A stretch of 64,000 nucleotides of DNA. It comes from an uncultured Planctomycetota bacterium (GTDB taxonomy: Bacteria > Planctomycetota > Planctomycetia > Isosphaerales > Isosphaeraceae). Location: the NCBI GenBank assembly GCA_963823665.1, contig CAWGMQ010000004.1:2400001-2464000 (forward strand), in the 5' to 3' direction. This document shows, one piece after another, positions 294 through 54,862 of the stretch (its first letter is position 1; every line of letters starts with the position of its first letter). The position numbers and the translations under genes are program-made. The notes under the pieces were generated by a model that saw only the letters and a program-made list of their open reading frames with translations, did not search any database and was not told where the DNA came from.

Positions 294-1768
294 TCAGAGC
301 AGCGAGTTCAGGTCATCGATTGACTGATCGACCGCCTGCAGCACCGTGGATACCGCCCCGGTACCGCTTGACGCACTCGATACCGACGTACTGCCATTGC
401 TTGTTTGAGCAGTGTCTGAATTGGATGTTGACGCTGTTGTTCCGGCGATGGAAATGGCGACAGCTTGGAGAGCGGTTACCGTGCTGCTTGTTTGAGTGAG
501 CAGACCTGCCGCGACGCTTCCGACCACATCAGGCACTATTGACATGGTCTCCACCCACCCGGTCAAGGTGCCTATGACGTTCTGCAGACCAAGATCCTCT
601 AAAAGTCCAGTGAGTGGGTCGGTGGGGGGGGCGTTATCGTTGGATGTACCACCCGCCTGAGATGGCTGCGCAGCGACTACAGTAGAAGGCGGCGCTATGG
701 CGCTTGTGGCTGCGAACCGAAGTTGACCTCCAAGCCGTAGGCGCCGATCGGGCCGGGCCCGCTGGCGGAGAGCACCTTGATGTAATACTCCTGGCCGGGC
801 TGCACGCTCGCGCTTACGCTGAATGTTGCACCGAGCGAACCAATTGTGCCTGCCTCGCCAATCAAGCTGAGCGACGAGTTGTATACCTGCAGCTTGGGCG
901 AAAGTGAGCTCAATGCGCTCGACTGCGCGGAGACGCTCATGGTTCCATTCGAGGTTGACGGCACGTTGACGGAAAACCATTCACTGTCACCGTCCGTCGT
1001 GATGTCGAGCCCGGACAGACTGATCTGATTGTTGCTCAGGAATGAGTTGATGGCCGTCGCCGTCGAATACGAATTGTTGCGTTTGGCGCCGGTATTGAAC
1101 TGATCGAACTGCGGTGTGCCGTAGATCGACTGGATGCCGCTGATGTCGTCGCTCGTGAGAGCCTGTTTGATTCCATTATATGTGCCGTACATCACGGCCG
1201 TGGAAACGGTCGATTCTCCCAGCCCCAGCGCATGTCCAAACTCGTGAGCGACGACCGTCAACAGGTCGTAGTTCGAGTTGATTTGCCAGTTGACACTTGA
1301 GTTAAGCAGGATGTCGCCCGCATCGGTGCCGCCATTGGCAGGGGGTGGCACGAAGGTGATTGCAAGGACGGACGAGCCCAATGGCACTGCACCAATGCGA
1401 ATATCTCCAAAACGTGGGTCATCTTGCTGATCTCCGGAGGTCCCCACCGGCTCGCCGCCGTCCGGCACCATTGCCAGATTGACGTTCGTGACATTCTCCC
1501 ACAACGACGCGGCTGTTTCGATTTGCTGCTCCCAAGTTGAAGTGGGGAACTTTGCATCGAGCATTTGAAAAAGCGTGCTTGGGACTCCGCCCACATTGGT
1601 CCCGTCGGGCATGAAGCTGTAAGTGATGCGGCTTGAGTAGGTCCACTGGTCACCCAGGGCGGAGTACAGCAAGAGTCGCGTTTCCAGGCCTTCCAGTTCC
1701 AGGCGCATGCCACGAAGATGCTTCTTTTGATTGCGTGTTCGACGAAAGGGCACACGAAGACCAAGCAT
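294..1768 (-). CDS. Secreted matrixin-like (M10/metzincin) metalloprotease with a PPC-like domain and Ser/Thr-rich tail; one frameshift near 698
   Basis: LEGLETRLLL leader, GDIRIG, GDILLN, HEFGHALGLGE and a Met-turn (AVMY). ORF 695-1768 joins the 294-980 frame (QPQAP|IAPPSTVV) with one added base. RBS GGAG. Confidence 0.85.
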
Positions 1769-2050: not shown

Positions 2051-2095
2051 AAAACGACAACGGCGGCGCTTCTCGGGAAGAGAAGCGTCGCCGTT
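2051..2095 (-). terminator. Probable intrinsic terminator downstream of the repeat-protein gene
   Basis: 16-bp stem AACGGCGGCGCTTCTC/GAGAAGCGTCGCCGTT (one imperfect pair) with a T tract a few nt further on the minus strand. Confidence 0.65.
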
Positions 2096-2182: not shown

Positions 2183-3145
2183 TTACTGGCCAGACGCCTT
2201 GACTGGCGCCTGTGGAGCACCCATCGGACCACTGTAGCCGCCCTTACCAGGTGCTTGTGGTGCCGGAGAGACCTTCGCCGGTGCCTGGGCAGCCGGCAGA
2301 ATCTTGGCGGGGGCCTGAGCGGTTGGCGCTACTTTGCTCGGAGCCTGAGCGGCTGGCATGATCTTGGCCGGAGCCTGGGCGGCCGGTGAGACCTTGCTCG
2401 GAGCCTGAGCGGCTGGCATGATCTTGGCCGGAGCCTGGGCGGCCGGTGAGACCTTGCTCGGGGCCTGAGCAGCCGGCATGACTTTGCCCGGAGCTTGACC
2501 CGCGGGCATGACCTTGCTGGGAGCAGCGGCAGCCGCCGGCCAGCTCTTGGCGGGCGCTTGGGGTGCCGGAGAAACCTTGCTCGGAGCCTGGCCAGCGGGC
2601 ATGGCTTTGCCCGGGGCTTGCCCCGCGGGCATGACCTTGCCCGGAGCCTGGCCGGCGGGCATGACCTTGCTGGGAGCAGCGGCAGCAGCCGGCCAGCCTT
2701 TCCCAGGAGCTTGGGGAGCTGGTGAGATCTTGCTCGGGGCTTGCGCAGCCGGCATGACCTTACCCGGAGCTTGGCCCGCGGGCATAATCTTGCCAGGAGC
2801 TTGAGCAGCCGGCATCACCTTGCCCGGCGCCTGCGCAGCCGGAGAAACTTTACTCGGCGCCGCAGCCGCGGGCCAGCCTTTCCCCGGCGCTTGAGGCGCG
2901 GGAGAAACTTTGGTAGGGGCGACGGCCGCCGGCAACGATTTACCGGGAGCCTGGGCCGTCGGCGACACTTTACTGGGGGCAACAGCCGCGGGCAAACCCT
3001 TGGCCGGTGCCTGAGCAGCCGGGGCAACCTTACCTGGGGCCTGTGCCGCCGGCAACACTTTGCCTGGTCCCTGAGCTGCCGCCATGGGCCCTTGCGGGCT
3101 CTGGCCGGTCAGACCCAAGGCAAGTACCAATACCGCACTGGTCAT
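2183..3145 (-). CDS. Secreted Pro/Ala-rich protein of about 27 decapeptide repeats (xKVxPAAQAP)
   Basis: Likely start ATG 3145 (RBS GAGGA), short hydrophobic leader MTSAVLVLALGLTG-Q, then 30-bp/10-aa repeats; downstream terminator. Confidence 0.85.
   Translation of the reverse strand: MTSAVLVLALGLTGQSPQGPMAAAQGPGKVLPAAQAPGKVAPAAQAPAKGLPAAVAPSKVSPTAQAPGKSLPAAVAPTKVSPAPQAPGKGWPAAAAPSKVSPAAQAPGKVMPAAQAPGKIMPAGQAPGKVMPAAQAPSKISPAPQAPGKGWPAAAAAPSKVMPAGQAPGKVMPAGQAPGKAMPAGQAPSKVSPAPQAPAKSWPAAAAAPSKVMPAGQAPGKVMPAAQAPSKVSPAAQAPAKIMPAAQAPSKVSPAAQAPAKIMPAAQAPSKVAPTAQAPAKILPAAQAPAKVSPAPQAPGKGGYSGPMGAPQAPVKASGQ
2245..3064 (-). repeat. Coding tandem repeat, about 27 x 30 bp (two units of 33 bp)
   Basis: For example GGAGCCTGAGCGGCTGGCATGATCTTGGCC recurs at 2341 and 2401; the translation has a 10-aa period. 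Confidence 0.9.
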
Positions 3146-3729
3146 CGCGATGTCCTCTTGTGAAGAGTGAGTTTGACGGTCCCCGTCTCGATCGAGTCGG
3201 TGTTCTGAGAATCCCCTGATGGTCTGGTGCGGTCGCTGGTTGTTGAGCGTCCTTTTCGCCAGATCCACCGTCACAGTTCGGATCATCTGCCGAACGCATA
3301 AAAGCGTTCTCCAGTGAACCTGTTCCCCAACCCGCGCTCGGGAACCGATCACGCAGGCCTCGGCACGGTGGCGGAAGCCTCAAGCCGGTCGTCTTGGCCG
3401 ACTCTCGCTCTCCACCCCCAGGGGTGGCCATTGTGGTTATCGGCAGACCTGTTGTCCTCATTCACAGAACTTGAGAAAATCGAGGAACTGCCAGGTTGAC
3501 GAACTCTAGGGGCTTTGACGAGTTTCAAGAGAGTAGGTGGTGTATCTTGGAGAATTGACATCCACCAACGGTTGCTTCGAAGCCGAACGTTGAGTGTGTC
3601 TAGGAGGTCCGCGTCGGTCAGGATGAGTCGTTGCGGTTGTCGTGAAGAGGGATACTTCTGCGACTTCCGGGACTCGAGGGCCGGTGCTCTTCGGTTCAGC
3701 ATAATTCTACACCGGTATTGGGAGGCAGC

Positions 3730-5301
3730 ATGCGTATTGGCAACTGGCTCGGGGGTTCGGTGATCATGATGCTGGCTGTCGTCCATGGTATGGCGGCAAC
3801 CGCGCGCACTGCCGAGCAAGTCACGACTGTCCCGACGGCCGTCCCGCTCGGAGGATCACTCGACGGCCAGTCCGGCGATCATTATTTCGGTATCTATGTT
3901 CCGACGCGATTCGGAGGCGAGCTCCAGGTCAAATCAACGTCGGGCAAGGTCGCCGAGCTCAAGCGCCCCAATGGCACAGCGCTTGAGAACGGTCAGGACA
4001 TCGGGTTTGACCAGCATGGCTGGTATACCTTCAAAGTGGAAGGCGCTACGAAACCCTACTCGGTGGAGAACGCGTTCGTTCAACACGCACAGAGCACGAA
4101 GAAGCCCTGGAACTTCTACTACTGGCCGACCAAGGGTGACTCGATTCACGAGCCGTGGGCTGGCGGCAACGCGCGAGTTGACACAATGAGCAGAAACGGC
4201 GATGACATGTTCGTCGCTTCGCCAGGCGGCTATATCGCCCCGGGAAATGACATCATCCTCCCGGGTGCCAATGGATTACTGGAAACTCTCCCACAGGCCG
4301 GTGACGACGCCACCTGGTTCCCGAACCTGTACGACGACTTGACCTGGGTTGGCCCGGACAAGAACAACGGCGGTCAAATCACACGGTTCATGACCCCGTC
4401 ACCCATGCTGAAATACGACCAGCTCTTCGGAACCTCGGGCCGTCAATGGGAAGCGGCGTTCAGCCAGAACAGGGATATCTCGCGCTGGCCCGGCCATTGC
4501 CTCGGAGGCGCTGTTGCGTCGATCCTCTTGAATGAGCCGACTCCGGCGCCCTGGACCGGGATGACTCGTGATGAACTCAAGGCCCTCTGGGCGGAGCTGG
4601 GCGAAAATCACTACAACCACCGGATTGGCGACTATGCCAACGAAATTCCTCCTGGCCCCCCCCGCCCTGGTTATGATGTGTGCGACTGGAAAGCCCCCAG
4701 GGTGCACGCGATGCTCGAGACCCACATTCGGGGTGAGAAGAAGGCCCTCCTCGCCAATCTCCGGGCGTTTCCACCGCGCGGAACGATCAATGAGGTATGG
4801 AACCACGGCGTTTACATGTACACCGCCAAGTACAATTCCATCGCTGGCCGCGGTCCCCGTGCCGTCAAGATCTCGCTCGAGCTTCACGCCAACTCGGGTT
4901 CTTGCATCAACGGTCAAGACGACAAAGATCGGGTGATCTACTACGAGTACAACCTGGTTTACGGCCTGGACGGCAAGATCGACGAATCCAATCCGGCCGC
5001 CGCCGACTGGATCTCGGTTCGTGGCGAAGCCCTTTTCGCCCCGCTGAATGTTCTCGAGCTGGTCGAATCACGCTGGGCCGGCCACAACCAGCAGATCACC
5101 GAAGGGAACGTCCGGTCGCTCGACCTGGCGAACGGCGGCACCAATCGTCAGCGGGTCGCGCAAGCACCGCAGTTTCGACCTGTGCTGGAGTATGAAGCCG
5201 GTCGTCCCAGAATGATCGCCGCCGATACGACGACGGAAGAAGATCGACCCCGATCGGGTGGAGGAGGCGGGTTCTTCAGAAGGATCTTCGGTGGCCGTTA
5301 A
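3730..5301 (+). CDS. Secreted GP42/transglutaminase-elicitor-family protein (papain-like Cys enzyme)
   Basis: RBS GGAGG, ATG 3730 and a signal peptide. Ordered motifs PWNFYYWPTKGDSI, SPMLKYD, WPGHCLGGAVASILLNEP, ELKAL, EVWNH and YEYNL..DGKI..W match the recalled family pattern (PW..YWP..DSI, S..EKY, WxGxCHxW..AI..EP, DLKAL, EVWNQP). Confidence 0.75.
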   Translation: MRIGNWLGGSVIMMLAVVHGMAATARTAEQVTTVPTAVPLGGSLDGQSGDHYFGIYVPTRFGGELQVKSTSGKVAELKRPNGTALENGQDIGFDQHGWYTFKVEGATKPYSVENAFVQHAQSTKKPWNFYYWPTKGDSIHEPWAGGNARVDTMSRNGDDMFVASPGGYIAPGNDIILPGANGLLETLPQAGDDATWFPNLYDDLTWVGPDKNNGGQITRFMTPSPMLKYDQLFGTSGRQWEAAFSQNRDISRWPGHCLGGAVASILLNEPTPAPWTGMTRDELKALWAELGENHYNHRIGDYANEIPPGPPRPGYDVCDWKAPRVHAMLETHIRGEKKALLANLRAFPPRGTINEVWNHGVYMYTAKYNSIAGRGPRAVKISLELHANSGSCINGQDDKDRVIYYEYNLVYGLDGKIDESNPAAADWISVRGEALFAPLNVLELVESRWAGHNQQITEGNVRSLDLANGGTNRQRVAQAPQFRPVLEYEAGRPRMIAADTTTEEDRPRSGGGGGFFRRIFGGR

Positions 5302-11198: not shown

Positions 11199-14096
11199 CT
11201 AGTTGCACTGCAGGCATGCCGCGCCGGTGGTCTTGAGAGAGATCGTCGCCCGGCGAGCCGCGTTTGCCGTCGGCGTAGTACCTTGCTCGTAATCCTCGAT
11301 TGCAAAGATCGCGCCCAGGTAAACGTTCTTCAGTTGGTACTTCGTGGGATCGCTTTCATAAAGGGCCCGCTGCTCTTTGTAATAAGTTGTGTCGGGCAGG
11401 AGATCCGATCCGGCGGGAGGCGTCTCCAACTTGAAGAGTGCCCCGAGAATCGGTTGTTGCTGGTCGAACTCCTGCGGATTCTTCGTGTAAAGCTCGCGAT
11501 CGAGAGGCGCATCGAAATGCGCATTCCTGGGCACGAGCGTTGTCGGCGTCGTCGGAATTCCTGAGATTTCCATGCCGATCAGAGTGCCGATTTGAGGATG
11601 CCAGTAGTCAAACCGCGTCGGATCGTGGCTCCGTCGCCTGCGCACGTAGTTATAGTAAGGTGTGTCGGGCAATAGCTTCAGCGGGCCTGTCGAGGTAACG
11701 CTCGACTTGATCGTGATATAAACAGTCGCCACGTTACTCAGCGTCGTGCCCAGTTGCGCCTGGTAGGTGAATGAATCGGAGCCCACGTAATTGAACGAAG
11801 GCGTGTACGCGAACGAGCCATTGGAGTTGAACGACAGCGCACCGTGCTGTGGGCCGGCCGTGAGCACAGCCGTGAGGGCGGCGCCTCTCGGTAAGTCATT
11901 GGTCAATACTCCGGGTGCTCCGACATTTAGCTGGACGTTCACCGTCGTTGTGTAATAGTCGTTCACTGCGACCGGCGTCTGCGTCGTCAAAACTGGCGTA
12001 ACCGTAATTGAAACGGTCGCCGCGCTGCTCGCCAGCACGCCGTTGGTACCTGTGAACTGGAAGCTGTCCGTGCCAGAATAACCGCTATTGGGAGTGTAGA
12101 CGAAGGTTGGCGCACTTCCTGAAAGTTTCCCGTGAGCAGGCTGTGCAGTGACTGTGAACGTAAGTGGCAGCGGCGGCGAATTTGGATCAGAGCCTTGCAG
12201 TGCGATCGGCGTGCTGGTGTTCTCGGCTGTAGTCACCGATTGCGCATTGGCTGCCGGCTGGCCAATCACCGTTATTGAAACCGTCGCAGCTTCACTCGAG
12301 CTCGTGCTATTGCTATCCGTGAACTGAAGCTCGTCATCGCCGAAGTATCCGGGGTCGGGTGTGTATGTCAGTTTCGGAGCCGTCCCTGAAAGCGTTCCAT
12401 GTAATGGTTGTGCAGTTACAGCAAATGAAAGCGCAAGCGGTGGTGAGTCAGGATCCGTGCCGGTCAGTGTGAACGTGACGGCGCTGTTCTCACCAGTCGT
12501 GATCGAAGTGGGCCCGGTTGCGCTTGGTTGGCCCACAACAGCAATCGATACAGTCGCTGCGCTGCTGGTTTGAACTCCATTGCTGTCGGTGAACTGAAAG
12601 CTGTCCGGCCCGATATAACTGCTGCTGGGCGTGTAAGTCAGATCGGGCGCCGTTCCGGATAGGGTGCCATGGGTGGGCTGTGCGGTGATCGTGAATCCCA
12701 GCGGAAGCGGCGGTATGTTGGGATCGGACCCCGTGACTGTAATGGCCGTTGCCGTGTCCTCCGGCACCGACACCGACTGATTATTCGCCGTGGGTGCTTG
12801 AACGACGATTGGCTGAAACGTGAACGATTGGCTTCCTTGAGCATTCACATTTCCCGCGAGATCCGCAACCTGACCGGCCACCTCCGTAACGGTGATCGGT
12901 CCAGCCAGTAGGATCCCACCGTTCTGACTGTAGGAATAGCGTTCCAGGTCGTTGCCAAGATCCTGCACCGAGTCGATCGTTACACCCGTGACCGTGATGT
13001 TTCCAATGCCAAAAGTGTTCGCATTGATCGGCGCCGTCCCGGCGTCGGTCCACTGTACGTCCACGTATCCAGGATCCTGTGTGATCGTTGAGTCAGGTGC
13101 TGGAGTCACGAGCGTCCCGACAGGCACTTGTTGATCGATCGTGATCATCTGCGTGGCAACGGAGCTTCCCGCTGCGTTTGTAGCCTGCACGCTCACCGAG
13201 TTCGGTCCCTGCGCCAACTCGACACCGGTGAACGTGAAATTTCCGTTGGCGTCAGAGGTCGTGGTGCCATTGATAAAACCGTTGCCGGTCGTTTCCAGCG
13301 ATACCGTCACATCCGGATCGGTCACGCCGATCAAGTTCACAGGATCGAAGTTGGTGATGTTCTCACCAACCGGGCCTGAGTTGGTCGCTGGGTCCAGCGT
13401 GAACGAAACCGGCGGCGGTGCTGCTCCCTGGTTCACCGTCACAGCCGTGATCCGCACCGAGCTGCTCGCCGGGGCAAACCCAATCAAGTCGAAGTACAGC
13501 GTGGCCTGCGTATTGGCCGGCACGCTCGATACGTCGACGCTGATTTCCTCGGGAAACGCGAGCGAGCTCACGGACCCTGACACCCCTGCCCCGGGCACAG
13601 TCACCTGCGGCGCATAATACACCTGGCCTGTCTGCTGGATGTTCAAGAACGCGTCCGTGTTTGCCAGTCCCGTCGCTGGTCCAACGAGCGGTTGATTGTT
13701 CGTGGAATTCAAAAGCGCTGCCTCAAAGGCATCCGGCGGGTTCCCAGGTCCATTGGCAACCAGATCGGAAGTCACGATCGCGAACTGAAGCGTCGTGGTC
13801 CCCGGCGCGATCGTGAAGCTCTGAGAAAGCTGGGTCTCGACTGTCGTACCCTCATTCAGAATTCCTTCTCCATTTGCAATCGAGGCGTTTCCCTGCGTCG
13901 TCCAACCATAATTCGGATCAGACGGGTCGCTGATCGAAAAGTTACCATTAAGCAGGCCAGAGAGTACAACGCGCTCTTCTAACTGCTCGAGCAACATTCG
14001 ACGCTTTGACCGAGCGCACAGCCTGTTGCATTTCCACGCCCATCCATGCGACGCAATCTCCACAAATATCCGACGCTCGCGCCTCTCATCATTCAC
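11199..14096 (-). CDS. Extracellular Ig-like/tandem-95 (Big_9-type) repeat protein
   Basis: LEQLEERVVL leader; about 4 repeats of PxHGTLSGTAPxLTYTP..YxGxDSFQF; RBS GGGAGA before GTG. Confidence 0.88.
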   Translation of the reverse strand: MNDERRERRIFVEIASHGWAWKCNRLCARSKRRMLLEQLEERVVLSGLLNGNFSISDPSDPNYGWTTQGNASIANGEGILNEGTTVETQLSQSFTIAPGTTTLQFAIVTSDLVANGPGNPPDAFEAALLNSTNNQPLVGPATGLANTDAFLNIQQTGQVYYAPQVTVPGAGVSGSVSSLAFPEEISVDVSSVPANTQATLYFDLIGFAPASSSVRITAVTVNQGAAPPPVSFTLDPATNSGPVGENITNFDPVNLIGVTDPDVTVSLETTGNGFINGTTTSDANGNFTFTGVELAQGPNSVSVQATNAAGSSVATQMITIDQQVPVGTLVTPAPDSTITQDPGYVDVQWTDAGTAPINANTFGIGNITVTGVTIDSVQDLGNDLERYSYSQNGGILLAGPITVTEVAGQVADLAGNVNAQGSQSFTFQPIVVQAPTANNQSVSVPEDTATAITVTGSDPNIPPLPLGFTITAQPTHGTLSGTAPDLTYTPSSSYIGPDSFQFTDSNGVQTSSAATVSIAVVGQPSATGPTSITTGENSAVTFTLTGTDPDSPPLALSFAVTAQPLHGTLSGTAPKLTYTPDPGYFGDDELQFTDSNSTSSSEAATVSITVIGQPAANAQSVTTAENTSTPIALQGSDPNSPPLPLTFTVTAQPAHGKLSGSAPTFVYTPNSGYSGTDSFQFTGTNGVLASSAATVSITVTPVLTTQTPVAVNDYYTTTVNVQLNVGAPGVLTNDLPRGAALTAVLTAGPQHGALSFNSNGSFAYTPSFNYVGSDSFTYQAQLGTTLSNVATVYITIKSSVTSTGPLKLLPDTPYYNYVRRRRSHDPTRFDYWHPQIGTLIGMEISGIPTTPTTLVPRNAHFDAPLDRELYTKNPQEFDQQQPILGALFKLETPPAGSDLLPDTTYYKEQRALYESDPTKYQLKNVYLGAIFAIEDYEQGTTPTANAARRATISLKTTGAACLQCN

Positions 14097-14396
14097 TCTC
14101 CCTGGGCGTGCTGCACTCGCCTCTGTACTCGGATGCCCAGATTCCTTCGTCTGTCAGTCTGGGATAACTGCGTAATTCTAACAGTTTGAATATGCCCGTG
14201 CGGCCGATTGACAATTTCGCATACCACATCAACGAGCCGGAAATGGACAATTTTCATGATAGCATCGATGCATTTCCGTAAGCGATACGGGGTCGATTCG
14301 ATTTTGGGCCGGGAGCGTGGTTTTGAATTCCAATGGTTCAACGACTTGGTTTGTGGTGCTGTGGCGGTCAGACGCACATGCCGTGTTTGCGACGCT

Positions 14397-17300
14397 TCAG
14401 GGCTTTTGCTTCATGACCGAACCGCGTTTCGCAAGGTGCACAGCCAGGTCGCCGTCAGGCCTGTTTGTAGCTTTCTTGCCGGCTGCCTTGCCGGGCGATT
14501 TGACAACAACGCGGCGCTTCGAGCCGTTGTGCTCAGAGCTCGCTCCTGCGTGGTTCACCTTCACCGTGACCGAGCGCTTATTCGCGTGCTCCGGCTTCTT
14601 GTCTTTCTTTTCCTTGGTGACGACGCTGCCGAGCGAATGAACTGCTTGATCCACCACGGTCGCCGGTGAAACGGGCGAGCTCGTGCTGGTCGCAGCTCCT
14701 GCACCTGACGAGCCCGTTGCTGGGGTAGACGGTGCCACCCCGTTGATGACGTTGATGATCTGGACATCAAGAGCCGATGGCAGCTCTTGAACGCTGGGAG
14801 CCAACGTCGCGCTCATGAGATCGTTGGCATAGATGCTCGAATTGAGCTCCTGGTCAGAATCAACCAGGGCGGCGGAAATCCCCGGCCCAACAAACGTTTG
14901 CGAGCCGTTGATCGTCTCCACATGCTGCTCGAAGCTGGGATTGTTCGGCAGGAAGCCTTCGAGATGGCCGAGTTCGTGCAGGAGCACTGTGAGCAGGTCG
15001 TAATGACCATAAGCGGCTGAGCCAGGCTGCGCTGCGTAGGCATTGTTAGCTAGCGTCTGGGAAAAGTCACTCTTGTTACCTGGCGCATCAGGATCGTCGT
15101 ACCAGCCAGCTCCGTTGGCGTTGGGCGAGAGCAGAATTACCCCGTTTGTAGCCTGCCCGGCGCTGTTCCAGTCGGTGACGTAAGTCTCACCCAGAACGCC
15201 TGAGGGGAGGGTAGCGACGACAATAGTCGGCATGAACGGCAGGGGCCTCCCCAGGGAGGTTTGCCACAATGTTAGCGCTTCTGGCAGGAGTGCGGTCAGC
15301 GCAGGGTCATCGCTCGAGATGAGCCCGCTTGGAGCGACCGGGATCACCCCGGCGGCGGGAAGACTCGCCAGGAGCTGACCGGAACGAATCGTATGCCCAT
15401 TCTGAGCAACGGTGATCGAGTTGGCGAGCGGGGGTCCCTGAAGGAAATTCGCTGTCAAACTGGCCCGGGCGCCCATGAAATTAGCCACGATGTTGTTGGC
15501 GAGAACTTTCGCGTTTCCTTGCGTTGAGCCAAATAGTGTGGCCGAGTCGCCGATCACCTGCGCCGCTTCGCCCAAGATACCCGCAGGGCTGCCGCTGAAG
15601 CCGTAGAACGTCTCCGCGAGGATAAGCGGACCGTTGAGATCGCCGACCAACGTCGAGTCGACGGAATAACTTGGAGTGCCAGGCCGCAATGGTCCTTGGG
15701 TGTCGTTCGTGTCGTAATAGAAGGTCAGTACCTCCATCGCATCCAAGCCCAACAACCCGTTGTAATAGGCATTCACACCGATCTGGACAACAAACAGGGC
15801 GAGGGCGAACAAGGGATTGGTCAGAAACACGAACGCCTTGCTGATAAACGGAGGAACTTTAGGAAGCGCGGCGCCAAGGTCTCCCGTATGGAGATACGTA
15901 TAGCCGCCACCCAAGACTCCGATCGCGCCGACTAGCAATGAAATCGCATCGAAGACGACGACGACCACGGCGTCCACGAAAAGATCATTAATGGCAGGCA
16001 GCGCGCTGGGGTTCACTGCCCCGAGGGTGTGTCGCAGTATGTTGATGGTCGGAATCTCGTCATTGATGGAGACAATGTCCATTTCCGCCTGAGCGGCCGT
16101 GGCCACAAGACCGATAGCGGTGGCGCCAAAAGCAAGTAGGGGCGATTCAAAGAGAAAAAGCCCGAAGATCCCCAGCGCAATGCTGCCCAATGCTATATCG
16201 CTTATGATGGCCGTAGGAGACGTGGGAGTGATCGACTGGCCGGAGGGATCGATCAGATTCACGGGGTTGTTTTGCGCGTACACGTAGCGGTGCAGCGACA
16301 GAGCATCACCCGTCAGGGCGGGGAGTGGGTCGGATTGAGTGAAGCGCCCCGTTGTCGGGTCATACAGCCGCGCCCGCATATAGTACTGTCCGGAGAACTG
16401 GTCGAACTGCTGTCCGGAATAGAGGAACTGCGTTGCCGCGGTGTATGGGTTGAAACCGATCGGATTGCCGAAGGCTGTGTAGGCGAAGCGATCGGTAATT
16501 GCTCCCTGCATGTTGGTCAGCAGGCGCGTCGAGCCGTGTCCATCGTAGAGGAAGAACCGTAGGCTGGAGAGGCTGGTGCCGACCTGGCCAACGATGTCAT
16601 CGCCCAGGATATAGGTCATAGTCACGGCGTGCGTTGTTCCGTCGCGCTCCTCCAGCACCTGTGCATACCCGCTGGGATTCTCTTCATCGACAACATAATC
16701 CGTGCTCGTGACGGTGGCTGGGCCACCGTTGATGATGACCGACGTGACGGTCCGCACTTTATTTCCACTGGTATCGTAGTAGTACGTCGTCGTGGTGACC
16801 TGCGTCTGCCCGGCGGCTGGCGAGCTTATCATCGTCGCCGTGAGCATCTGATTCTGGAGGTTATAGGTGTACTGTTCGACCATTTGCCCGTTGACCGACT
16901 CGGTCAGCAGGGAACCGTTTGCGTCATAGGTGTACGTGGTCACCGTGCCGTTGCTGGAGGTCTGCGCCAGTAACTCGTAATCATTGTTGTAGGTGTAGTT
17001 GACCGTGACGGTGCCGCTCGGGGTTGTGGTGACCATCGAGAGGCGGTTGCCAGCCAGGTCATAGGTGTAATCGATGGTGTAATCAAACTGTGGCTGGCCT
17101 CCCGTCAGGTCTTGCGACTTCTCCTGCGTCAACCGCCCCAGCGCATCGTAGGTATAGGTGATCTCTGTCTTGGCAAGGGTCCCATCCGCCTGCAGCGTGG
17201 TTTCAGTCGCCTGCAGCCTGTTGCCATTGGCATCATTGACGTAGTCATATTCGCTGAGCAGATCCCCGGCCGCATCCTTGGTGACTTGCTGAGTCAGGTT

Positions 17301-20300
17301 GCCGTTTGCGTCATATGAATAAGTGACTGTGTCGCCGTTCGGCAGTGTCTCACTCTGTCGCAAACCGGTGGCTGTATAGGTGTAGGTCGTCGTCAGTGGG
17401 GTCGCCAGGGTCTCTCCGTTGAGTTCGTCAGCCGTCGTTGAAGTGAGGTCTCCCATCACATCGTAGGTGTACTGGATGTCGGTAGAATCCGTGTACATTC
17501 CGAGGAGGTTGCCGGTCGCCGGGTCGTAGACGTAATGGAGCTCGGCTTCAGGGGAATCGATCTCGGTGACCTGCCCGTCGGTGTTGTAGGAATACGTGGT
17601 CAGTCCAATGCGTGGATCATTCACCGTTTGAAGCTGGCCCATGGCGGTATAGGTGAAAGTGATGCTATATGACGGCACCCCCGAATTGGCCTGCGCCACG
17701 TTCTGGTAATAGTCTGCCTCGACTTGCTCGCCCTGGCTGTTGTAGATGTACTGCGTGACCTGGCCATCGAAGTCGATGGCGCGGGTAACCTGGTTGTTAT
17801 TGTTGTAGATGTACTGATTGGTCTCCCCGTCGGGGAGGGTTTCGGAAAGTTGGTCCCCGTAAGGGTCGTAGGTGTACTTGGTCACATTACCCAGCGGGTC
17901 GGTAACCTGAAGTAAATCGCCAAGCGAGTCGTAGACGTAGGTGTAAGTGGGGCTGGTAAGAGCTCCGCCGTTGTTTGGATCGGTCACGGCGGGGAGAATT
18001 TCCTCGGTTAGCTCTCCTAGAGAGTTGTAGACGTACTGGGTCGTGTTCCCCAGAGCGTCTGTTTCTGAGACCACGTCCCCCTGTGAGTTGTAGGACTCCT
18101 TGATGGTAGAACCATCCGGGAGAATCGTTTCGGTGAGGTTTCCCAGGCTGTCGTACTGAAACCGTGTTTGCTGTCCCAGGGCGTCCGTCTGGAGAATTTC
18201 CCTGCCGTACTGGTCGTAGGCAAAAGTGGTGCGGCCGCCCAACGCGTCGATGCTGGCCGTCTCTTCGCCGAGACTGTTGTACTCGTAAGTGGTTGTACCC
18301 TCACCCGTGGTCGTTGTGGACTGCACGTGGCCTTCGGAAGTGTAGACCGTGGTTGTGGTCGAGATGACGCCGGTGTCCGAAACGACGGAACTGGAGCTGT
18401 TTCCCGCCGGAGTCGTCGTGATGTCGATCAGGAGGCCGGAAACGCGTTCGGTTTCCGCCACACGTCCCAGGGCATCGTACTCGGTGTATGTCCCATCCGG
18501 CAGGACGCCGCTCTGAGGGTTAAATGCATCTGTCCGATAGATCACACGGCCGAGCAGGTCGTAAACGGTCAGAACGACGAGGTTACCCTGTTCCGTGGTC
18601 TCGATGGGGTTGCCGTTCAAGTCATACTTGATACCTAGCGTGATCCCGTTTTGATTCACGCCGCCCGTGACTTGCCCGTCCGCATTGTACTCTGTCTGCG
18701 ATGTGACACCGTCAGGATACGTTACGCCGGTGAGCTTACCGCCCGCGTTGTAAGTATAGGTGGCGTTCAGGACTTCCTGGTTACTGGGGTTGCTCGGGTC
18801 AACCCAGAGCGTGGATGAGGAAGTCGGATTACCATCCGCGTTTACGGTTCGCGTCTGGGGCAACCCGGCGTCACCGTCCGAAGCAGTTAACACCCCCTGG
18901 GAGTTATACTGGAATACCATCGCATCGCCAGGACCCTGGACCTCCGAGGTGATCTGGCCGGTCGTGTTATAGTTAATGGTCGTGGTGGCACCGGCGAAAT
19001 CCGTCACCTGCGTTGCATTCCCCTGGGCATCGTACTCCGTTGTAGCCGTGTTACCTTCAGGATCCGTGCTGGAAGTAGCCTGTCCAGCGGCGTTGTAGGT
19101 GTACGACGTCGTGTTACCGGCCAGGTCGGTCGTCGAGAGGAGATCGCCGTTGGAATCGTAGGTATTCGTGGTGGTCTGTGACGTGCCATCGGTGTATGTG
19201 ACCGTTTGCGCCAACACCTTGTTCAGCGAGTTGTATGTATACGTCGTGATTGTGCCGACGGGATTGATCTGCTCCACGATGTTCCCGTTCGTGTCGTATG
19301 CTGTTGTTGTGGTGTCGCCCAGTGCGTCTTCGGTCGTCTCGACACGATCGGGCAAGTCGTTATTGAAGGTCACGGCGTTACCCATTGCGTTCACGATCTC
19401 GGTGATGTGGCCACTCGAGTCGTAGTCGGTCCGGACGCCTTCCCGGCCCAGAGGGTCGTACACCGACAGCAGCAGGTGATCACTGTTGTAGGTGAACCGT
19501 GTGACATTGCCTTCCTGGTCGGTGACCGATACCAGATCTCCATAGGAGTCGTACTGGTACGTGATCGATTCCCCCATCGGGTCCGTAATTGACGTGATCC
19601 GGTTCTGAGAATCCCGTGTAAACGTCAGGCTGGCGCCGTCGGAGTTGATCTCACCATTCGTAGTGAACGCCGTCGTGTTGCCGTTAGCGTCAGTAACACT
19701 CTGAAGACCATTTGCCTCGGAGATGATATACACCGTACCGTTGGCTGCGGTGTACTTCCAGCTCGTCGGATTGTAGACCTGACCGGTTGACTGATCGATG
19801 AAAGTCACCGGCCCCACCTGGGCAGGAGACACGATGACGTTGTTATTGGTCAGCGCGACTAGCGACCCGGTGGTACCCGAATTGGGAACCGGCACGAAAA
19901 AGATACTGGTGGTTGCCAGCGGTGGAGCTGCAATGGTGTAAGTCTCACCCGTGAAGCCCATCAAGAACTGTTCCGTTGTCCCATCGGGCAGGTAGATGGT
20001 CACATAATCGTTCTGTGTATTCTGGAAGCTGTACTGAATCCTCGCGGGCTCACTCCCCAGGCCCGGTGGCAACCCGATGCCCGGCAGGCCGCCGAACCCT
20101 CCAAGACCTCCGAGCCCCGCGAGGCTGCCGAGCCCTCCGAGCGGATTGACCTGGGTAGCAGGTAGCTGCGTCTCGGTCTGGATGAAACCCGCGCCCAGCA
20201 CAGACGACGTTTCCACACTCATCTGCGTCGTGGTCAGCGTCCACCCGTATCCAAAGTCGCCGCTCACGTCTTTCGTGAGACTGCTGTAAGTGCGAGTGGC

Positions 20301-23300
20301 AGTGAGATCAATACCCGGCTCGGCGACGTTCTCATCCTGGAAGCTCAAGGTGAAATTCCCGACCTTTGCCTCGCCGCTGACTTCGTACACCTCGTCCGCG
20401 GTTGTCACCTGCCCGCTCGTATCCTCGACCGTCAGCCGCACGTCGTAAAACCCGTTCTCCATGGTCGTCGGGTCGATCGTTCCCAGCGTGCCGTTGATCA
20501 CCGACTGGGTGCCGCCGCCAAACGTCGTCCACTGGTTCTGGCCTTCGACCGAGTATTGCAGGGTGTACTGCAAGAAGTCCGGCGAATTCGCGGTCCCCAT
20601 GATCGGTGTCGGCAGCGTCACCACCGGCGTGACCTGCGTTTCGTTGAAGCCTGCAACTGGGGCGGGCAGACCATTCGGCGGTGTCAGGAACACAACCGTC
20701 TGCGTGGCAGTGCCCTCGTTTCCTTCTGCGTCAAACGCGTTTGCCACGATCGTGAACACACCGGGTGCCACCGACGAAAGCGTGGTCGTCCCGGACGCGC
20801 TGAGCGCAACCTGGTTGCCGTTGATCAGGAGCACTTCGCTCGCCAGCGGCTTGCTATCGTGCGTCGAGGTCACCACCGAGATGTTCACCGTATCGCCGAT
20901 ACGTGCTGTCGTCTCGGAAACATTGAGCGTCACATCCGGTGGAATCAGGTTCGACGGAAGCGTGTTGTCAACGCGGGTGAAGGTTTCCGCGAGAGTGCTC
21001 ACGTTGCCGGCGACATCCGTCACCTGCGCTGTGAAGGTGTAAGCTGCGATCGTGGGCATGTTCACCGGATAGAACGAGAAATTGCCCGAGGAATCTGCTG
21101 TCGTCGTTGCCCCTGATTGGACCAACTCGACTGTCGCGCCCGGTACCGTCTGCCCGTCGAGACGTACGGTCGGCATCACGGTCGTGTTCGGGCCGAACGC
21201 CGGTGCTTCGAAGGCGGAATCCAGAGTGAACGACGAGATCTTTGGTAGCGTGTTGTCAACCGTGATGGTGAGCGGTGTCGAGAACGGACTGATGAGCCCC
21301 GAGACTGTTTCCGCGGTCGCCGTGAAGATGTACTGCCCGTCAGCAAGCTCCCCGGGTATGGCGAAGTTAAACGGCGCCATGCTGGTGGAAGTTTGCTGCC
21401 CGACCTGCGAGCCATTCATGTAGAGCGTCACGATTGTGCCGACGGGCGCGGACATCTGGATCGTCAGCGAGCGATCCTTAGTGATCGTGCCGCTCGTGCC
21501 GGTCAGGTCACTCGCGAGCAGTTGCACACCGGTTGGCGGCAGCGGCCGCGTGCTCTCGAGATCAAAGAACACGTGGTAGACAGTTGACTGATTCCCCAGG
21601 TTGTCCGTGGCCTCTAGCGCAATGGTGTGCGAGCCATCCGGAAGCGCCGTTCCGCCGTTTAATGTTGCCAGATCCGCCGCCGTGAGTGTGAAGCCCTCTC
21701 CGGTCAGGAAAGAGGTTGCATCCGTCATCGCACCGCCGTCGATGGAAACCTCGAAGCTCTTCACTCCGCTGGGGTCATTCACGAGTCCTGTGATCGTCGG
21801 GTCGTACGTGATGTCGTCTGTACTCGAGATACCTGTGTCATTGGCCAGCGCCGCCGTGATCACTGGCGCACTCGTGTCAGCCGCCGTTGTCGTGATGGTC
21901 TGCGTCAACTCGCTGCTGTTGCCCGCGACATCGCTCGCTACCACGATGAAAGCTTGCGAACCGGTCGCCAGCGCGATGTTGTCAAAGGTGAAACTACCGC
22001 CTGGGCTGGCCTGCGTCTGCGCAATCGCCGTGTTCGGGTCCCACTGGCGATACAGCGAGACGAAGGCGCTCGGGCTTGTTGTGCCGGTCAGGTTCACAAC
22101 CTGCAAGTTTGTCTCTGTTGTCTGGCCTGCTGGGCTCTGAGAGGCGGTATCTAGCCCCAGCGTCGGCGTTGTCGGAGGGGTGGTGCTGATGACAAGCGTT
22201 ACCGGCGCAGCCGGCGTGCTGACGTTGCCAGCGACGTCTTCCGCAGTCGCCGTCATCGCATAGGTACCGTTCGCCAGCGTCGTCGTCGCGATGAATACTG
22301 GACCGTTGTTTGCTGTCGCCTGGCCAACCTGCACGCCGTTCGCGTAGAGCGTGACAATGTCGTTTGCCGGCGCGGCTACCTCGAATGTCGGCGTCGCGTC
22401 CCGTGTGATACCATCGCTCGAGCTGATACCAGTGTCGCTCGAGGCCAGTAGCTGCGGCGTCACCTGCGCGGGCGGTGTCGTCAAGAGGATGAAGCTCACG
22501 CTCACGGGCTGAGACAGATTGCCGTTGGAATCCTTAGCCACGAGCGTGAGCGTGTGCTTGCCGTCGGCTACCGGACCGCCGTTGATCGTCGCCAGCAGCG
22601 CGGGCGTGATCGTGAATGTCGTGCCGGAAAGCGAACTCAGAACGCTGACCGCACTCGATTGATCGAGCTGTGCCTCGAACGACGTGATCGGATTCACTGC
22701 CGTGATCGTTCCCGTCACGGTGTCGTCAGATGTGATGTTGTCGAGCGCCGAAACACCGGTGTCGTCGGCCAGTTGAGCCGTGATTACCGGCGGCACCAGG
22801 CTCTGCCCCGGCAAGTTGCGCGTGATGATGTCCGTGTACTGGCTGCTCACGTCGTTCGCATTGGTTGCGACCGCGGTGAACGAATTCGGCCCGTTGGCCA
22901 GCGATACGTTGAAGAAGACGAACAGGCCGTTGGGATTAGACGTGGTGCTGACACCGGTCGGCTCGAGTGTGACCGTTACATTGGGATTGGTCTGGCCGAC
23001 CAGGGTCACCGTCGCGTCGGTTGTCGTACCGCTGCCGGGCGGCGTCTGGGAGTTGACGTCCAGATTGAAGACCGGCTGCGCCGGAGGCGTCGTGGGAACT
23101 GTCGCCGTCGTCGCATGGAACCCGTAGTCACTCGCCAGGATCACCTCGTCTGCCAGATTGACCGTGCCGTCACCGTTGATATCGGCCGCCAGGCTATAAT
23201 TCGCGCTGCTGGTACTGCTCCCCATCGCTTCCTCGAGCAGCGCGCTATCATTGCCGTCGACATTGCCGTCACCATTGATATCGCCGGCGACCGTGAGGTT

Positions 23301-26300
23301 GAGCGAATACTTGCCGGTGCTCGACGCGGTCGCGCCGGAGACGGAAACCACGTAAAGCCCGGGCTGATTGATCGGGAACAGGGCGACGAGTGTGCTCCCC
23401 TGCGTGTTCACGGAAAGCGGCTGGACGCCGGCGTATCGTGGGCATCGCTGGAACAAGGCCGTCGCTCCCCTGCGACGATCACGCGCAAAAGCACGCTGCC
23501 GGTTGCCGTTGAGTTGAGCTCGGCCTGGTCGAAGTGGAAGCCGAAGAGATCTGTCTCGCCGGCGGCCAGCGTATTGTCGATCGTCGTGCCTGAAAATTGT
23601 GCGGCGCCTCCCAGATCACGCTGAATATAAGACGTCGTCGTGGTGCCGGGCGTATACTGCACGCTGTTGCCGTTGCTGCGCAGGGCCGCGATCAGCAGAT
23701 GAGGATCGGAGAGCGAATACCCGTACTGCTGTGAGCCTCCCGTGCTCTGATTCTGCATCAAGACGAGGTTGCCGTTTGAGTCGTACTGATAATTCAACAC
23801 CTCGCCGCCAGGTGCGACGATGCTCGTGATCAGCCCCTGGCTGTTGCGCAGAAACTGGATTGTTTGCCCGTTGGCTGCCGTGATGCCGCTGTCGCTGATG
23901 TAAAGCTGAGCACCCGAAGAGGTGATCTCGCCGATGATATTCCCGTCTTCGTCGAGCTGATATTGCGTGTTGCCGGGCGCAACCAGCGTGTAGCTCGGGC
24001 CGCTGAAAAACGGATTTCCCGGGTTGTACGGCTGACCGCTCGTCAGGTCGTAATAGTTGCTACCGGACTTTGTGAGTACGGCCTCGGTCGACTCGAGCGT
24101 GTAGCTCACACCGCTCTCAGACTGCCAGGCCGGATGGTAGAACGTCTGGCCCGCAACCTCGAAGCTCGTCGGTGCAAACGTAAATGGCACACGCTGGCCC
24201 GTCGGCAGTGTCAGGAAAATCACCGTGCCGTCGCCGAACGGATTGAAGACGCCGTAATCCTCCTGTCCCGTCGTCGCCACGTTGGTCTGGAGATTCGTCT
24301 GCCGATTTACCAGCATCCAGCCGGCGCCAAAGTCGCCGCTACCGTCACGATTGAGCGGATCGTAACTGCGCTCGAGCAGCACCGTCGTTCCGTCCAGGTC
24401 AATGCTCAAGTCGGAGTCGGTCACCACCAGGTCGCCGGGTTTGGCGGGTGTGTTGATCTCGATCTGAGCCGTGGTTGTCGAGGTCCGTCCGGTCAAGTCA
24501 GTCGCGGTGAGCTCAAGCTGATAAAAACCGTTGGCCAGCTCGGCTGGATCGAGCTGTGCCAGCGGGCCGTCGTTCACTGGCGTGGTGCCGGTGGCCAGCA
24601 CCGTGAAATCGGGATTGTTGGGCGTGGCGATCTCGAGCGTCCAGGAATCAAGGTTTGTGTCGGCAACCGTTCCCAGAATTGCGGTCGGGCTCGACAGCAC
24701 GGCATCAGGCACGGAGCTGTCGAAGGAAACTGATGGCGGGGTCGTGTCGTTCGGGTCGCGCACCTGGACGTAGGCCGTCGCCGTTCCGACCAGACCGTCC
24801 GCGTCTGTCGCCGTCGCCGTGATCAGCGACTGACCCGGGTTGCCGGCGGTGACGGTTACTTCCCCATTCGAGTTGAGCGCAAGCGGCTGGCCGTCGAGCA
24901 TGACGACCAGGTTCGTAATTGGTGCCACACTGGTGGCGATCGCATTGATGATCACCTGCTGCCCCGGGATCGCCGGGAAGCTGGGCGTGAGCACAATTTG
25001 CACGCTGGGGAGCTGAGGCTTGACCGCGGCCTCGATCAGGATGTTCTGAGTCGAGCTTGCCTCACCGTCAGAGACTTGGAGCGTGACGACGAAGGCACCC
25101 GCCTGCGAGGGCCCAGGCGTCCACCGGAACTCGCCCGTCTGTGCGTTGATTGTCGCACCACTCGGTAGGTTGATTGCCGAGTAAGTGAGAGTGGTACCGG
25201 CATCGAGGTCGGTTGCCTGGATCTGGAATGAAAGCGGCACGCCGAGCGCCGCCTGATGATCGGGGGTATCGAGCGTCGGCGGCCGGACGACGTGAGCAAT
25301 ATTGAGCGTCACGGTCATCGAAGCACTGCCACCGGTGGGGTCTGTCGCCGTGAACTGCAGGTTGTAAACGCCCGCCTGCCCGTACGCTGGCGTCCAACTG
25401 AACATTCCGGTCGACGCGTTGAACGTCGAGCCAGTGGGTGCATTGAGCAAGTCATACAGAAGCGGCGCACCGTCTACATCGGCGGCCACAACCGTGAACT
25501 GGACCTGGAATCCTTCACGGCCGTACTGCGGGATGAGCGGAATGAACTGAGGCGGGAAATCCGTGTGCGTGACCGTGATGTTCACCGTCTCCGTGCTGCT
25601 TGTGCTGCCGTCGCTGGCCGTCACCGGTACGGAATAACTGCCTGCCTGGCCCGACTCAGGCGTCCAGGTGAGCAATCCAGTGGCGGGATTGATGCTCGCA
25701 CCACTTGGTAAATCTGCGGCTGTGTACGTGAGCGGATCGCCCTCCTGCTTGGTTGCAGTCACTGAAAGGCTTAACGTTTGCCCTTCGGCAACGGTGGCAG
25801 TTGTTGTCGCAGCCGGGAAAACCGGCGCTGTATCGCTCGAGCGCACGACGATACGGATGGTGGTTGAAACCGAAGACGGCTGGGTAATCGTACCGTTACC
25901 TGCATCGGTCACTGTGAAGGTGACCTGGTGCGCACCGGTGTCGGCGGCAGTCGGCGTCCACTCAAGCGTGGCCGATCCGTAGGAAGTTCCCGACGTCAGA
26001 ACAGCCGCGGCTGGAAGCCCGCTCACCGCGTAAGTCAAGAGGTCCTGGTCGGGCTCGCTCGCAGTCAGGCTGAGTATGAAGGGTTGACCGATCACGGCGA
26101 CCTGGTCGCCAACGTAATCAAGCACCGGCACCTGCGTCGGCGAGTTGACCGTCACCTCGAACGTGTAAGTGCCGCTCAGCACCCCGGCTGGCCCCAGCCC
26201 ATCGCCGTTATCTGTCGCTACCAACCTGAGCGTGTACGTGCCGCGATTCCCCGCCGGTGGGTTGAAGTGCAGGATGCCGTTGCCGTTCCCGTTGTCCGTG

Positions 26301-29300
26301 AGCGTCACGAAGCTCGGCAGCGGGTAGCCGGGAACGCCGTTCTCGACGGATAGCGTCATCGGGTTGCCGTCGGGATCAACCGCCTGCACTGCCTGGTCAA
26401 AAGGCTGCCCGGCCGTGAGCGTGATGTCGGCAATCGGAGTCACCGCCGGAGCGTGGTTCACGATCAAGACGGTGATGGGCACTGTGATGCTAGTCGAGAG
26501 CGGGCCGCCGTTATCGTCGTTTGTCGCCGTGAACACGACGTTGTATGTGCCGTTCTGGTGGTCGGCCGGTGTCCAGCTAAAGAGTGCGCTGTTCGGGTTG
26601 AACGTCGCGCCGGGAGGCAGGCCGCTTACAGTGTAGGTCACTGTCGGCTGAGTCGTCGGATATGGTGAAAGTGTTCCATCGGGCAGTGTTATCGGCAACT
26701 CGAACGTCGGGTTGTGTGGATCGACTGCGAAGGCCGTGAACGAGATCGGCTGGCCTTCGTCCACCTGCCAGCTCTGCTAGCGGGCTGAACACGGGCGCAG
26801 CGGGTGCAGGCAGAACCGTGTAGGTTGCCGTCACCGTCGTCGAAATCCCCTGATCGCTAGTCGCCGTGAACGGTACGGTGTACGTTCCCACCTGGTCGTA
26901 GCCGATCGGCCAGTCGAATACGCCTGTGTTGGGACCGAGCGTGGCATTTCCTGGCAGGCTCGCGCTGGAATAGGTCACCGTCCCGCCGTCCGCGTCGCTC
27001 CCCTGCAAGGTAAATTGCAGATAATCACCCTCGCGCACGGTCTGGTCCGGCACGGCGGCAAGCTGCGGCGGAGGTGGCGCCGGTGCGATCAAAAGCGTGA
27101 CCGTGGCACTCACAGTATTCACGCCGTCGCTGACGTAAAATGTCACATTGTCGTATGTGCCAGCCTGGCTAAAATTTGGCTCCCAGAGCAGCGTATGCGT
27201 GGTCGGGTCGAATGACGCGCCGCCCGGAAGATTCGCGGCCCAGTAGAAGAGCGAGCGGCCGTCCGAGTCCGTTGCAGTTACCGGAAGTACAAGCGGCTGA
27301 CCTTCTTTCCCGGAAACCTCCGAAGGCAGCGGCCCGATCACGGGCGGAACGCTCCCACCCGCAACCTGAATCGAGAAGTGCTGGATGGTGTAGCTGCCGC
27401 TGGGATCATACGCGAAGAGATCGACGTTCACGGTCGCAGGAGTTGTGGGAAGGGTGTTCCAGGTGATGAGCCCCGTGACCGGATTCACGGTCATCCCGGT
27501 GGGACCATCGCCGAGCACAAAACCGGGCGTCGAGCCGTCGGGATCGTGGGCTGCTGCCTGGTACGTATACGTGTTCCCGGCCGTTACACCGGTCACCGGC
27601 GTGCTGGTGAAGACCGGCGCACTGACCGCCGGCAGTATGCCCGAGACTTCCGTGGTGTAGTCGATCGTCTGCCCGTTCGTATCGTTGATCGTCACCGTTT
27701 GACCGGTTGTGCTCTGCCCCGGCGCAAGCTGCACGCCGCCGGGCACCGAGCTATTCGAGACTGATGAGCCAGCTCCCATTCGAGCTCTGCGACGCATTCT
27801 GTGGAGTGCCTGTGAAGTTCGCCCCCGGAGTGAGGATCAGCAGCAAGGGCGCCAGCAAATTGAACTGGCTGGTGTTCGTGATCGTCACGTCGAACGACAC
27901 CGTGCCCGTATTCCGATCTGACCGCGTGCTCGTGAACGTGAGCGAGACATAGGGGGAGAGGTTGCTGACGGTCGAGAAGTGAGTCACATAGGGCGTAAGC
28001 AGTGTCAGTCCGTTCGTGCTCTGGATCGACTCGGCCGACGGTAAGCGTGTACGTGTCGGCGGTGAGTCCCGAAACGACCAGAAGCGCGGTCTTCGAGTTC
28101 GGGTTGTACTGGACTGCGTCGATGATCGCCGGGCCGGAGGTTTGGCCGACCAAGCTGTAATCGGCCGGATCGGTGACCGACGCACTGTTGGTCGAGGAGC
28201 CGGTGAACATCTCCTGATCAAAGGTCACGCCGATGAAGGCCAGCGGCAGCGCCGCGATACTGCCGCTCGGCGGATTCGTGGCCACCACGACCGGCGGCAC
28301 CACCGGCTCGAGCACGTCCACTTCGTGCGACTGGCTGATCAATAGCCGGCCGTCAGAAGTGGCCAGGACGTCAAAGCCGCGCGTGCCTCCCTGCGCCACC
28401 GCCACCTGCTGGAGCGTTGTCAGGTCGACCATCGTCAGATCGGTTGGCGTCGGCGCAACCATGCCGCCGGGTGTATTCGGTGCGTCGTCGTGGGACACGA
28501 AGAGCAGGTTCGCCAGGTCAGTCCCCTCCTGGCCGAAGGAAATCGACTGGATGTCGGAATCAAATGTGAGCATAACCTGTGCACGAGCCAGGTCGTTGAA
28601 CTCGACGACCTGCGTCGAGTTGGGCCAGGTGACAGCCCAGAGATTGCCCTGGTTGGTCAAACGCCAGGCTCGAGACGCGCAGGTTCTGGTCACGGCTAAA
28701 CTGCGTGAAGGTATCCGTCGTCGGGTCGAAGATCGAGACGCCGTTACTGGTCGCGACGTAGATCTGGTCGGACAGGGGATCAACGGCCAGTGCGAGCGTG
28801 ATGCCCTGGCCGAACTGATTGATGATCGACCCCGTAGCAGGGTCAAGCTGCAAGAGCGGCCCGCCTCCGGTCGCCGCCCAGAGATCGCCCTGGTTGTCAA
28901 ACGCCAGTGCAAAGATCTGGTAGGGCAGCGTGGCCAGGGGTGCGCCGATTTGGCCACCGTTTGCGTTGACATGGAACAGCTCGTTGCGGGACGGTCCCCC
29001 GCTGATCAGAAAGCTTCCGTCCGGCTCCTCGGCGATCGCCATCGGGCCCAAGATGCCGTCGCTCTGCTCAAATCCCGTGGCGAATGACTGGGCCTCGAAT
29101 GGCTGGAGCACCGTCATGAATTCGGAGGGATTGCTCGCCGGGGGCGCGGCCGGTACGCCTTGCTGCGCTTGCTTGAACAGGGGGTTGGTCGAGGGCTGTA
29201 CCGTGGGTGCCGGCGGAACGCCGAAGTTGGGCGGGGTCGTGTTGGGAACAGTCGGTAGTGCGCCCAGATTCACCGTGGTCGTGTTCTGCGGCACATTGGC

Positions 29301-54372: not shown

Positions 54373-54862
54373 TCGTAACTCCTCGGCGGATTCTCTCTTC
54401 GTCCCTGTCGTGATTCGCCAATCGTTGATCAACACGCCCCGGAGGAGTGCGCTGTCTCGTCCTTGAGGTCGCCTCCTGTCGAACAGGGTTTGAAAAGCTC
54501 AGCTAGAAATTCAAGAAACACCGGCCCGACAGCCGAAAACAACAAGTTGCGGGCTCAACCGATGAAGCGTCATCGTGAGTATATCACCGGCAAACTTGCA
54601 ATTTCGGGGCACAAAGAAGATTTACTGATCCCCGAGTTCGTCTTGTGCCGATAACGACGAGTTAACCGTCACGGACCGGCCACAGAATGGCAGAGCAAGC
54701 CGCGCGCCGTGCCTGAATGCGCATTTCGATGCGCTGGCAAGTGCCAGGATACTGGTGGCCAGATTCAGCCGACTGCCGTGGAGGCGCTTCAGGTTAGGCG
54801 CTTCGCGCACACCTTGAAGGCCCGGACCCAGGCGAAGGTGCCCAGACGAGAGGCCCTGTAAT

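Follow-up and report, generated by a model that had tools for sequence, protein, structure and literature searches.

Within a 64,000-nucleotide stretch of genomic DNA (the window) from an uncultured member of the Isosphaeraceae, a family of soil and peat bacteria, we found two head-to-head genes, one encoding a Lys/Gln repeat protein and the other a putative cysteine enzyme (Table 1). The repeat ORF begins with an ATG at 3145 on the minus strand, has GAGGAC at 3152-3157 as its ribosome site, and its stop codon ends at 2183. A sequence-only reading of this DNA had counted about 27 repeats with a Lys in each and a Gln in about 22, and a mature chain free of Asp, Glu and Arg; the counts came out at exactly 27, 27 and 22, in 25 units of 10 residues and two of 11, and the three missing residues are absent from the entire 320-residue protein. 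Lys2, Pro5, Ala9 and Pro10 are invariant across the 25 ten-residue units, in which both Lys codons and both Gln codons are used, while variability per codon position was 0.45 for the third position, 0.15 for the first and 0.12 for the second. This third-position variation with fixed residues indicates that the repeat frame is under selection as protein. Although the GC content is 60%, none of the 25 ten-residue units has Arg in place of Lys. The same reading had given both proteins export leaders, and each has an N-terminal hydrophobic stretch (9-residue Kyte-Doolittle maximum 2.98 in the repeat protein and 2.86 in the enzyme), although the repeat protein leader has no basic n-region; we infer that both proteins are exported. 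The repeat protein matched no Pfam family, and in NCBIfam gave only a weak compositional match to Rv3852 (20.8 of 100 bits).

Table 1. Features of the divergent gene pair, in window coordinates
Feature	Position	Strand	Evidence
Inverted repeat 3' of the repeat gene, possible terminator	2060..2094	-	By eye; absent from terminator scan output
Repeat gene (candidate substrate); putative exported Lys/Gln/Pro/Ala repeat protein, 320 aa	2183..3145	-	ORF, orthologues
Array of 27 units, x-K-x-x-P-x-x-Q-A-P	2249..3064	-	Repeat scan, translation
Leader of the repeat gene, ~290 nt, sequence conserved	3146..3430	-	Alignment
Sigma-28 (FliA/WhiG)-like promoter, TGAA-N16-GCCGATAA, toward the repeat gene	3437..3464	-	Motif conservation
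Conserved boxes lying between both promoter-like motifs; may be regulator sites	3466..3531	.	Alignment
Promoter-like element ending GCCGAAC(C/G), ~148 nt before the enzyme gene	3560..3589	+	Motif conservation
Gene for putative exported GP42-fold cysteine enzyme, 523 aa	3730..5301	+	ORF, predicted fold, profile
N-terminal beta-sandwich, about aa 30-120, PPC/collagen-binding- and PliG-like fold	3817..4089	+	Predicted model, pLDDT 90
His256-Cys257 codons, predicted active site	4495..4500	+	Alignment, site pattern

To compare the composition of repeat orthologues, we used 30 of 60, namely the complete sequences with <2% Arg; the Arg limit was set to exclude frameshifted tails and biases the Arg count of this set. 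Median contents were 9% Lys and 8% Gln, near 1:1; 22 of the 30 were without Asp/Glu, and Gln occurred within the last three residues in 22. Among unfiltered orthologues the Ala filler shifts to Cys, His, Ser or Pro between genera, with Lys and Gln retained. The L204 orthologue has almost no Ala, in a Cys/Pro form that resembles a small proline-rich protein, and the Cys-rich orthologues L040, L065 and L204 look SPRR-like in their repeat pattern. Because the array interrupts contigs built from short reads and carries frameshifts in several assemblies, this gene will often be missed in annotation. Elsewhere in the same genome there is a second putative exported Lys/Gln/Pro/Ala repeat gene (L182:1432-2199, contig C8), which adjoins a TPR gene. 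It has counterparts in many Isosphaeraceae genomes and a conserved sigma-70-like TAT(A/T)(C/A)T element, and does not share the sigma-28 motif; this second family-wide repeat protein is likely a further candidate substrate.

The sequence-only reading had assigned the partner to the GP42-like transglutaminases. A direct match to Pfam TGase_elicitor (PF16683) was not obtained: the protein did not reach the gathering cut-off, with no Pfam family at E<=1; PF16683 had no match in this genome, and searches of NCBIfam and of PDB sequences, whether with the enzyme itself or with profiles of it, returned nothing relevant and did not recover the GP42 structure, 3TW5. The structural and profile comparisons, on the other hand, bore the assignment out. 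With an AlphaFold2 model of the enzyme (mean pLDDT 64), Foldseek gave Phytophthora sojae GP42 as its sole match at E<=0.001 (E 3.3e-4), and in a VIA fold search of 48,161 chains GP42 was the only one with Z>=8 (Z 16.6, rmsd 3.9, 257 aligned; next 6.7), the nearest folds after it being mostly cysteine proteases. By hhalign, a 50-row enzyme profile and one built from 12 PF16683-positive planctomycete ORFs matched at 99.4% (a further hhalign comparison gave 97.5%). Of 150 distant homologues listed, 50 were scanned; seven of these matched PF16683 at E<0.01, two of the 50 over the cut-off, and the top matches of an Atlas search were PF16683 clusters at 0.95. Homology to GP42/PF16683 is thus well supported by fold, profile and PF16683-positive distant homologues; we do not file the enzyme as a PF16683 member, since it falls short of the score cut-off and lacks the Cys-His motif. 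Fold matches to the N-terminal domain were tied at Z 7.3-8.3 across unrelated functions, with PPC/collagen-binding domains and PliG at Z 7.9-8.3. The C-terminus has a G-F-F-R-x-x-F-G-R-like tail (window 5270-5298, plus strand), a pattern found in 209 of 235 homologues, and the repeat proteins of one divergent group (L142, L144, L148) end in a similar G-L-F-H tail; the two tails may possibly be a shared sorting or anchoring signal.

The enzyme keeps the ordered motifs of the TGase-elicitor family, as read earlier, but lacks the catalytic Cys-His pair of GP42: its predicted site reads W-P-G-H-C-L. In GP42 a His directly follows the catalytic Cys (PMC10318531), whereas all 235 close homologues of the window enzyme read H-C-L, with Leu at that place. 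Cys257, His256 and Asn358 (the last in the V-W-N motif) are invariant in a 35-row alignment, and the predicted model places the W-x-G-x-C motif with Cys257 at a helix (256-266), at low confidence beside the active site (pLDDT <50 for 246-254). Among 74 representatives with the motif, His precedes Cys in 71 and follows it in none. His-before-Cys also occurs in most PF16683-positive planctomycete ORFs, including those over the cut-off, and therefore looks like a broad bacterial form; we found no publication showing activity of a His-Cys family member. His359 is Gln in 41 of the 235 homologues, and the invariant Glu289/Glu292 fall at the GP42 Y-D position by counting along the alignment.

By profile, the enzyme gene was present in 47 of 48 sampled Isosphaeraceae genomes versus 3 of 152 others. 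A single query found it in 34 of 36 genomes of the family and in none of 24 from outside it. Named homologues are from Isosphaeraceae, and since the cultured genera Aquisphaera, Paludisphaera, Tautonia and Singulisphaera carry the enzyme, the pair is directly testable. The head-to-head arrangement seen in the window proved to be conserved: a divergent repeat gene lies upstream of the enzyme in 33/33 relatives having upstream DNA (of 34), some of these repeat genes being cut by a contig end or frameshifted, and 20 more loci from 17 genomes gave one linked copy in 17/17 and three second copies without a repeat gene. A contig scan of 80 enzyme loci found the repeat gene at 64 and a repeat start at the contig end at 2, the rest being one without upstream DNA, three distant Phycisphaerae-labelled homologues and 10 close copies lacking the repeat (8 of them second copies by record title); these linkage sets overlap, and related genomes are not independent. 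Control flanks were looser than the pair (downstream kinase-like gene, 26/32 informative genomes; upstream matrixin, 15/25), and at L204, L208 and L219 the pair is present with none of the tested neighbours. The matrixin (M10) metalloprotease gene of the window (695-1768, minus strand) lies downstream of the repeat gene and is syntenic in those 15 genomes. Second enzyme copies without a repeat neighbour were noted at L034, L053, L054, L060, L206, L213 and L217; the last three have the same H-C-L site, and several second copies keep the GCCGAACC element. A fused or adjacent Lys/Gln repeat, sought in 150 representatives and at 40 loci (distant homologues or second copies), was seen only at L218, a linked primary copy, which indicates that the GP42-like fold does not need such a neighbour. 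Records L144, L148 and L167 are labelled Candidatus Kuenenia or Pirellulales, yet have an Isosphaeraceae-type locus with a linked repeat gene, and are probably mislabelled.

The intergenic gap is 584 bp in the window, in agreement with the roughly 580 bp read earlier, and 550-610 bp in 56 of 61 loci. Over the 400 bp nearest the repeat gene identity is 70%, against 38% for four-fold sites within the enzyme gene, and the intergenic DNA is under strong selection. The ribosome site of the repeat gene is conserved along with its leader. A riboswitch or structured RNA in the leader was unsupported: there was no Rfam match near the gathering score, RNAalifold gave a covariation term of +0.62 with two-sided change in 6 of 30 pairs, and the single-sequence z was -1.7. 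The promoter-like motif toward the repeat gene differs by one mismatch from T(A/C)AA-N16-GCCGATAA, which is described for WhiG2 together with a WhiG1 -10 of GCCGAACT (PMC12871210). Of 61 intergenic regions, 48 have the exact -10 GCCGATAA at 268-306 nt upstream of the repeat start, and 44 have TNAA-N15-17-GCCGATA; on the other side, GCCGAAC is found at most 260 nt from the enzyme start in 46 of 61 loci versus 2% in shuffles. The repeat-gene and enzyme-gene -10 motifs match the WhiG2 and WhiG1 -10 elements, respectively. The transcript 5' ends predicted from them lie near 3430 (minus strand) and at about 3597 (plus strand). FliA/WhiG scored over the cut-off in 39 of 41 Isosphaeraceae genomes and flagellin was found in 0 of the 41; the family's FliA/WhiG is by this reckoning a predicted orphan sigma-28. 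Its gene adjoins one for a MinD/ParA-type ATPase (L184:1477-3615). Genome-wide, the promoter pattern had 11 matches versus 3 for a reversed control, several within ORFs, so no regulon is definable. RNA contigs from four studies are available for the relative L119; they span the enzyme gene as well as the leader and 5' end of the repeat gene, and cover further downstream is sparse. These runs were found using the same stretch, the array lay outside the coverage check, and the contigs give neither level nor strand. An RNA contig end at L119:5664 (two runs) was ruled out as the predicted start, the prediction being about 5698.

A putatively exported enzyme beside a Lys/Gln repeat protein suggests the welding of a surface protein coat, and we give somewhat better than an even chance to a candidate enzyme-substrate pair that would cross-link a surface protein mesh, its chemistry, location and role being our interpretation. 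In such a scheme both proteins would be exported, the enzyme acting as a GP42-fold transglutaminase and the repeat protein as its dedicated substrate. Cys257, aided by the adjacent His256 (and/or His359), would form a thioester with a repeat Gln and transfer it to a repeat Lys, and extended Pro/Ala chains with about 20-27 donor and acceptor sites each would be joined at the cell surface into an insoluble mesh of isopeptide links, with the orphan sigma-28 turning both genes on together. The results themselves extend to the predicted fold, a Cys site that is conserved, head-to-head linkage throughout the family, selection that holds Lys and Gln in the units, conserved promoter-like motifs and RNA cover of both genes in a relative. 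The enzyme-substrate reading made from the sequence is supported in part, by fold, profile and linkage; the score below the Pfam cut-off and the Leu in place of the His after Cys speak against it, and transglutaminase activity, the substrate relation and the product (coat, holdfast or cement) are what the scheme would predict. The modest model confidence around the active site also weighs on the other side, as do the cysteine proteases that make up most of the next-nearest folds and the distant homologues and second copies beside which no Lys/Gln repeat was found.

Three other explanations bear on the same evidence. It is hardly credible that the repeat ORF is artefactual or a low-complexity tract free of selection: the array is frameshifted in several assemblies, but the codon-position pattern already contradicts this idea, as do the conserved ribosome site and leader, intact copies in most of the 17 further genomes and RNA contigs over the 5' end in four studies. 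A second alternative, which we consider unlikely, makes the enzyme a papain-like protease or a Gln deamidase, with the repeat protein (or some other surface protein) being trimmed, released or recharged instead of cross-linked. Papain-like proteases fill the list of folds below GP42 (IdeS Z 6.2, SpeB 5.4), the N-terminal domain is like PPC/collagen-binding modules found in secreted proteases, the pair is often flanked on its other side by a matrixin protease gene, and W-N-H-G/A at 357-360 resembles the papain N-H-A-V motif. GP42, however, scored 10 Z units above any protease, the Gln found at 359 in some homologues means that a canonical protease His is not needed there, and a fixed Lys and Gln per unit are less simply explained by a protease.

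It is likewise improbable that these are co-regulated envelope genes rather than enzyme and substrate, with a cationic repeat protein binding anionic exopolysaccharide or membrane and the enzyme acting elsewhere. A shared control region alone can keep divergent genes together, and the strongly selected intergenic DNA could do so here; downstream lie genes similar, at scores below cut-off, to those for a polysaccharide tyrosine autokinase and an XrtA-associated ATPase, and the second enzyme copies lack the repeat neighbour. If charge alone mattered, though, Arg should replace Lys, and it does not; Gln is kept too, and the pair outlasts the loss of all tested neighbours. We keep to the enzyme-substrate pair as the preferred reading.

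Elsewhere in the window, a YTV-repeat protein (PF07639, E 4e-46) is encoded at 52803-54435 (minus strand) by a gene that seems to be divided between two frames; proteins of the YTV type are known as planctomycete wall proteins. Three large ORFs at 11199-26764 (minus strand) with Ig, cadherin, dockerin and RHS repeats are possibly pieces of one or two giant adhesins, and six 435-nt repeats with 94% identity (40261-42910) lie inside an ORF at 39828-43517 that had no Pfam family over cut-off. As to the wall itself, Cys, Met, Pro and Trp are often lost or unmeasured after acid hydrolysis. The Isosphaera pallida wall is reported, second-hand, as proteinaceous and without Cys, Met, Pro or Trp (PMC3072084), which counts against the pair and makes a Pro-rich protein a poor fit as main wall component. 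Planctomycetes are described in a 2025 review as having protein-dominated walls, with peptidoglycan later detected in several species and ldt lost in Isosphaerales (PMC12673574). A wider picture, which we hold to be doubtful, is an isopeptide-welded layer in Isosphaeraceae, made of the two Lys/Gln repeat proteins and the His-Cys GP42-fold enzyme under the orphan sigma-28, a bacterial counterpart of the cornified envelope; in this lineage, which has lost many peptidoglycan genes, it would be a coat that carries load or belongs to the resting state. If the pair is what we propose, a physiological substrate could be named for the GP42-fold family in bacteria, and the His-Cys form would be shown to cross-link proteins. 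The two genes would also offer a handle on the composition of the protein-dominated planctomycete wall (PMC12673574), a target for the sigma-28 retained by non-flagellated Isosphaeraceae, and a new microbial transglutaminase that comes with its own tag sequence.

The closest known enzyme is GP42 of P. sojae, described as a cell-wall enzyme (PMC4915311), with which the window enzyme has in common the core fold and the motif order PW..YWP, KY, W-x-G-x-C, EP, D/E-L-K-A-L, V-W-N. The window enzyme differs in its His before Cys, its score below the Pfam cut-off, its N-terminal beta-sandwich, its bacterial host and its linked candidate substrate; GP42 homologues are given by the review as known only from oomycetes and Vibrio (PMC4915311). 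In full-text searches of largely open-access literature we found no description of the pair or of a planctomycete GP42-like enzyme. For its control, the nearest parallel is in WhiG/FliA regulons repurposed in non-motile bacteria, whose reported promoter motifs are matched here; the host in our case is a planctomycete ("planctomyc" occurs nowhere in PMC12871210), the -35 of the enzyme gene differs, and the promoters are predicted from sequence. Bacillus subtilis Tgl cross-links Gln to Lys in the spore coat (PMC6490927), a bacterial surface layer treated in the way proposed here, and can form a dyad with the residue that immediately precedes its Cys (PMC10318531), but it belongs to another enzyme family, acts on an endospore coat and has no homology that we could see to the window enzyme. 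Trappin-2 cementoin and SPRR/cornifin have short Gln/Lys/Pro repeats like those of the repeat protein; these are animal proteins, and the likeness is compositional, with no Pfam match. The GQDPVK repeat sites of cementoin were not found cross-linked in epidermis (PMC3110255), so Lys/Gln motifs are not always reactive, a further point against the pair. Coats welded by transglutaminases are already known from Bacillus Tgl and trappin-2; the planctomycete enzyme would, should an assay agree, work as a cross-linker of the GP42 type.
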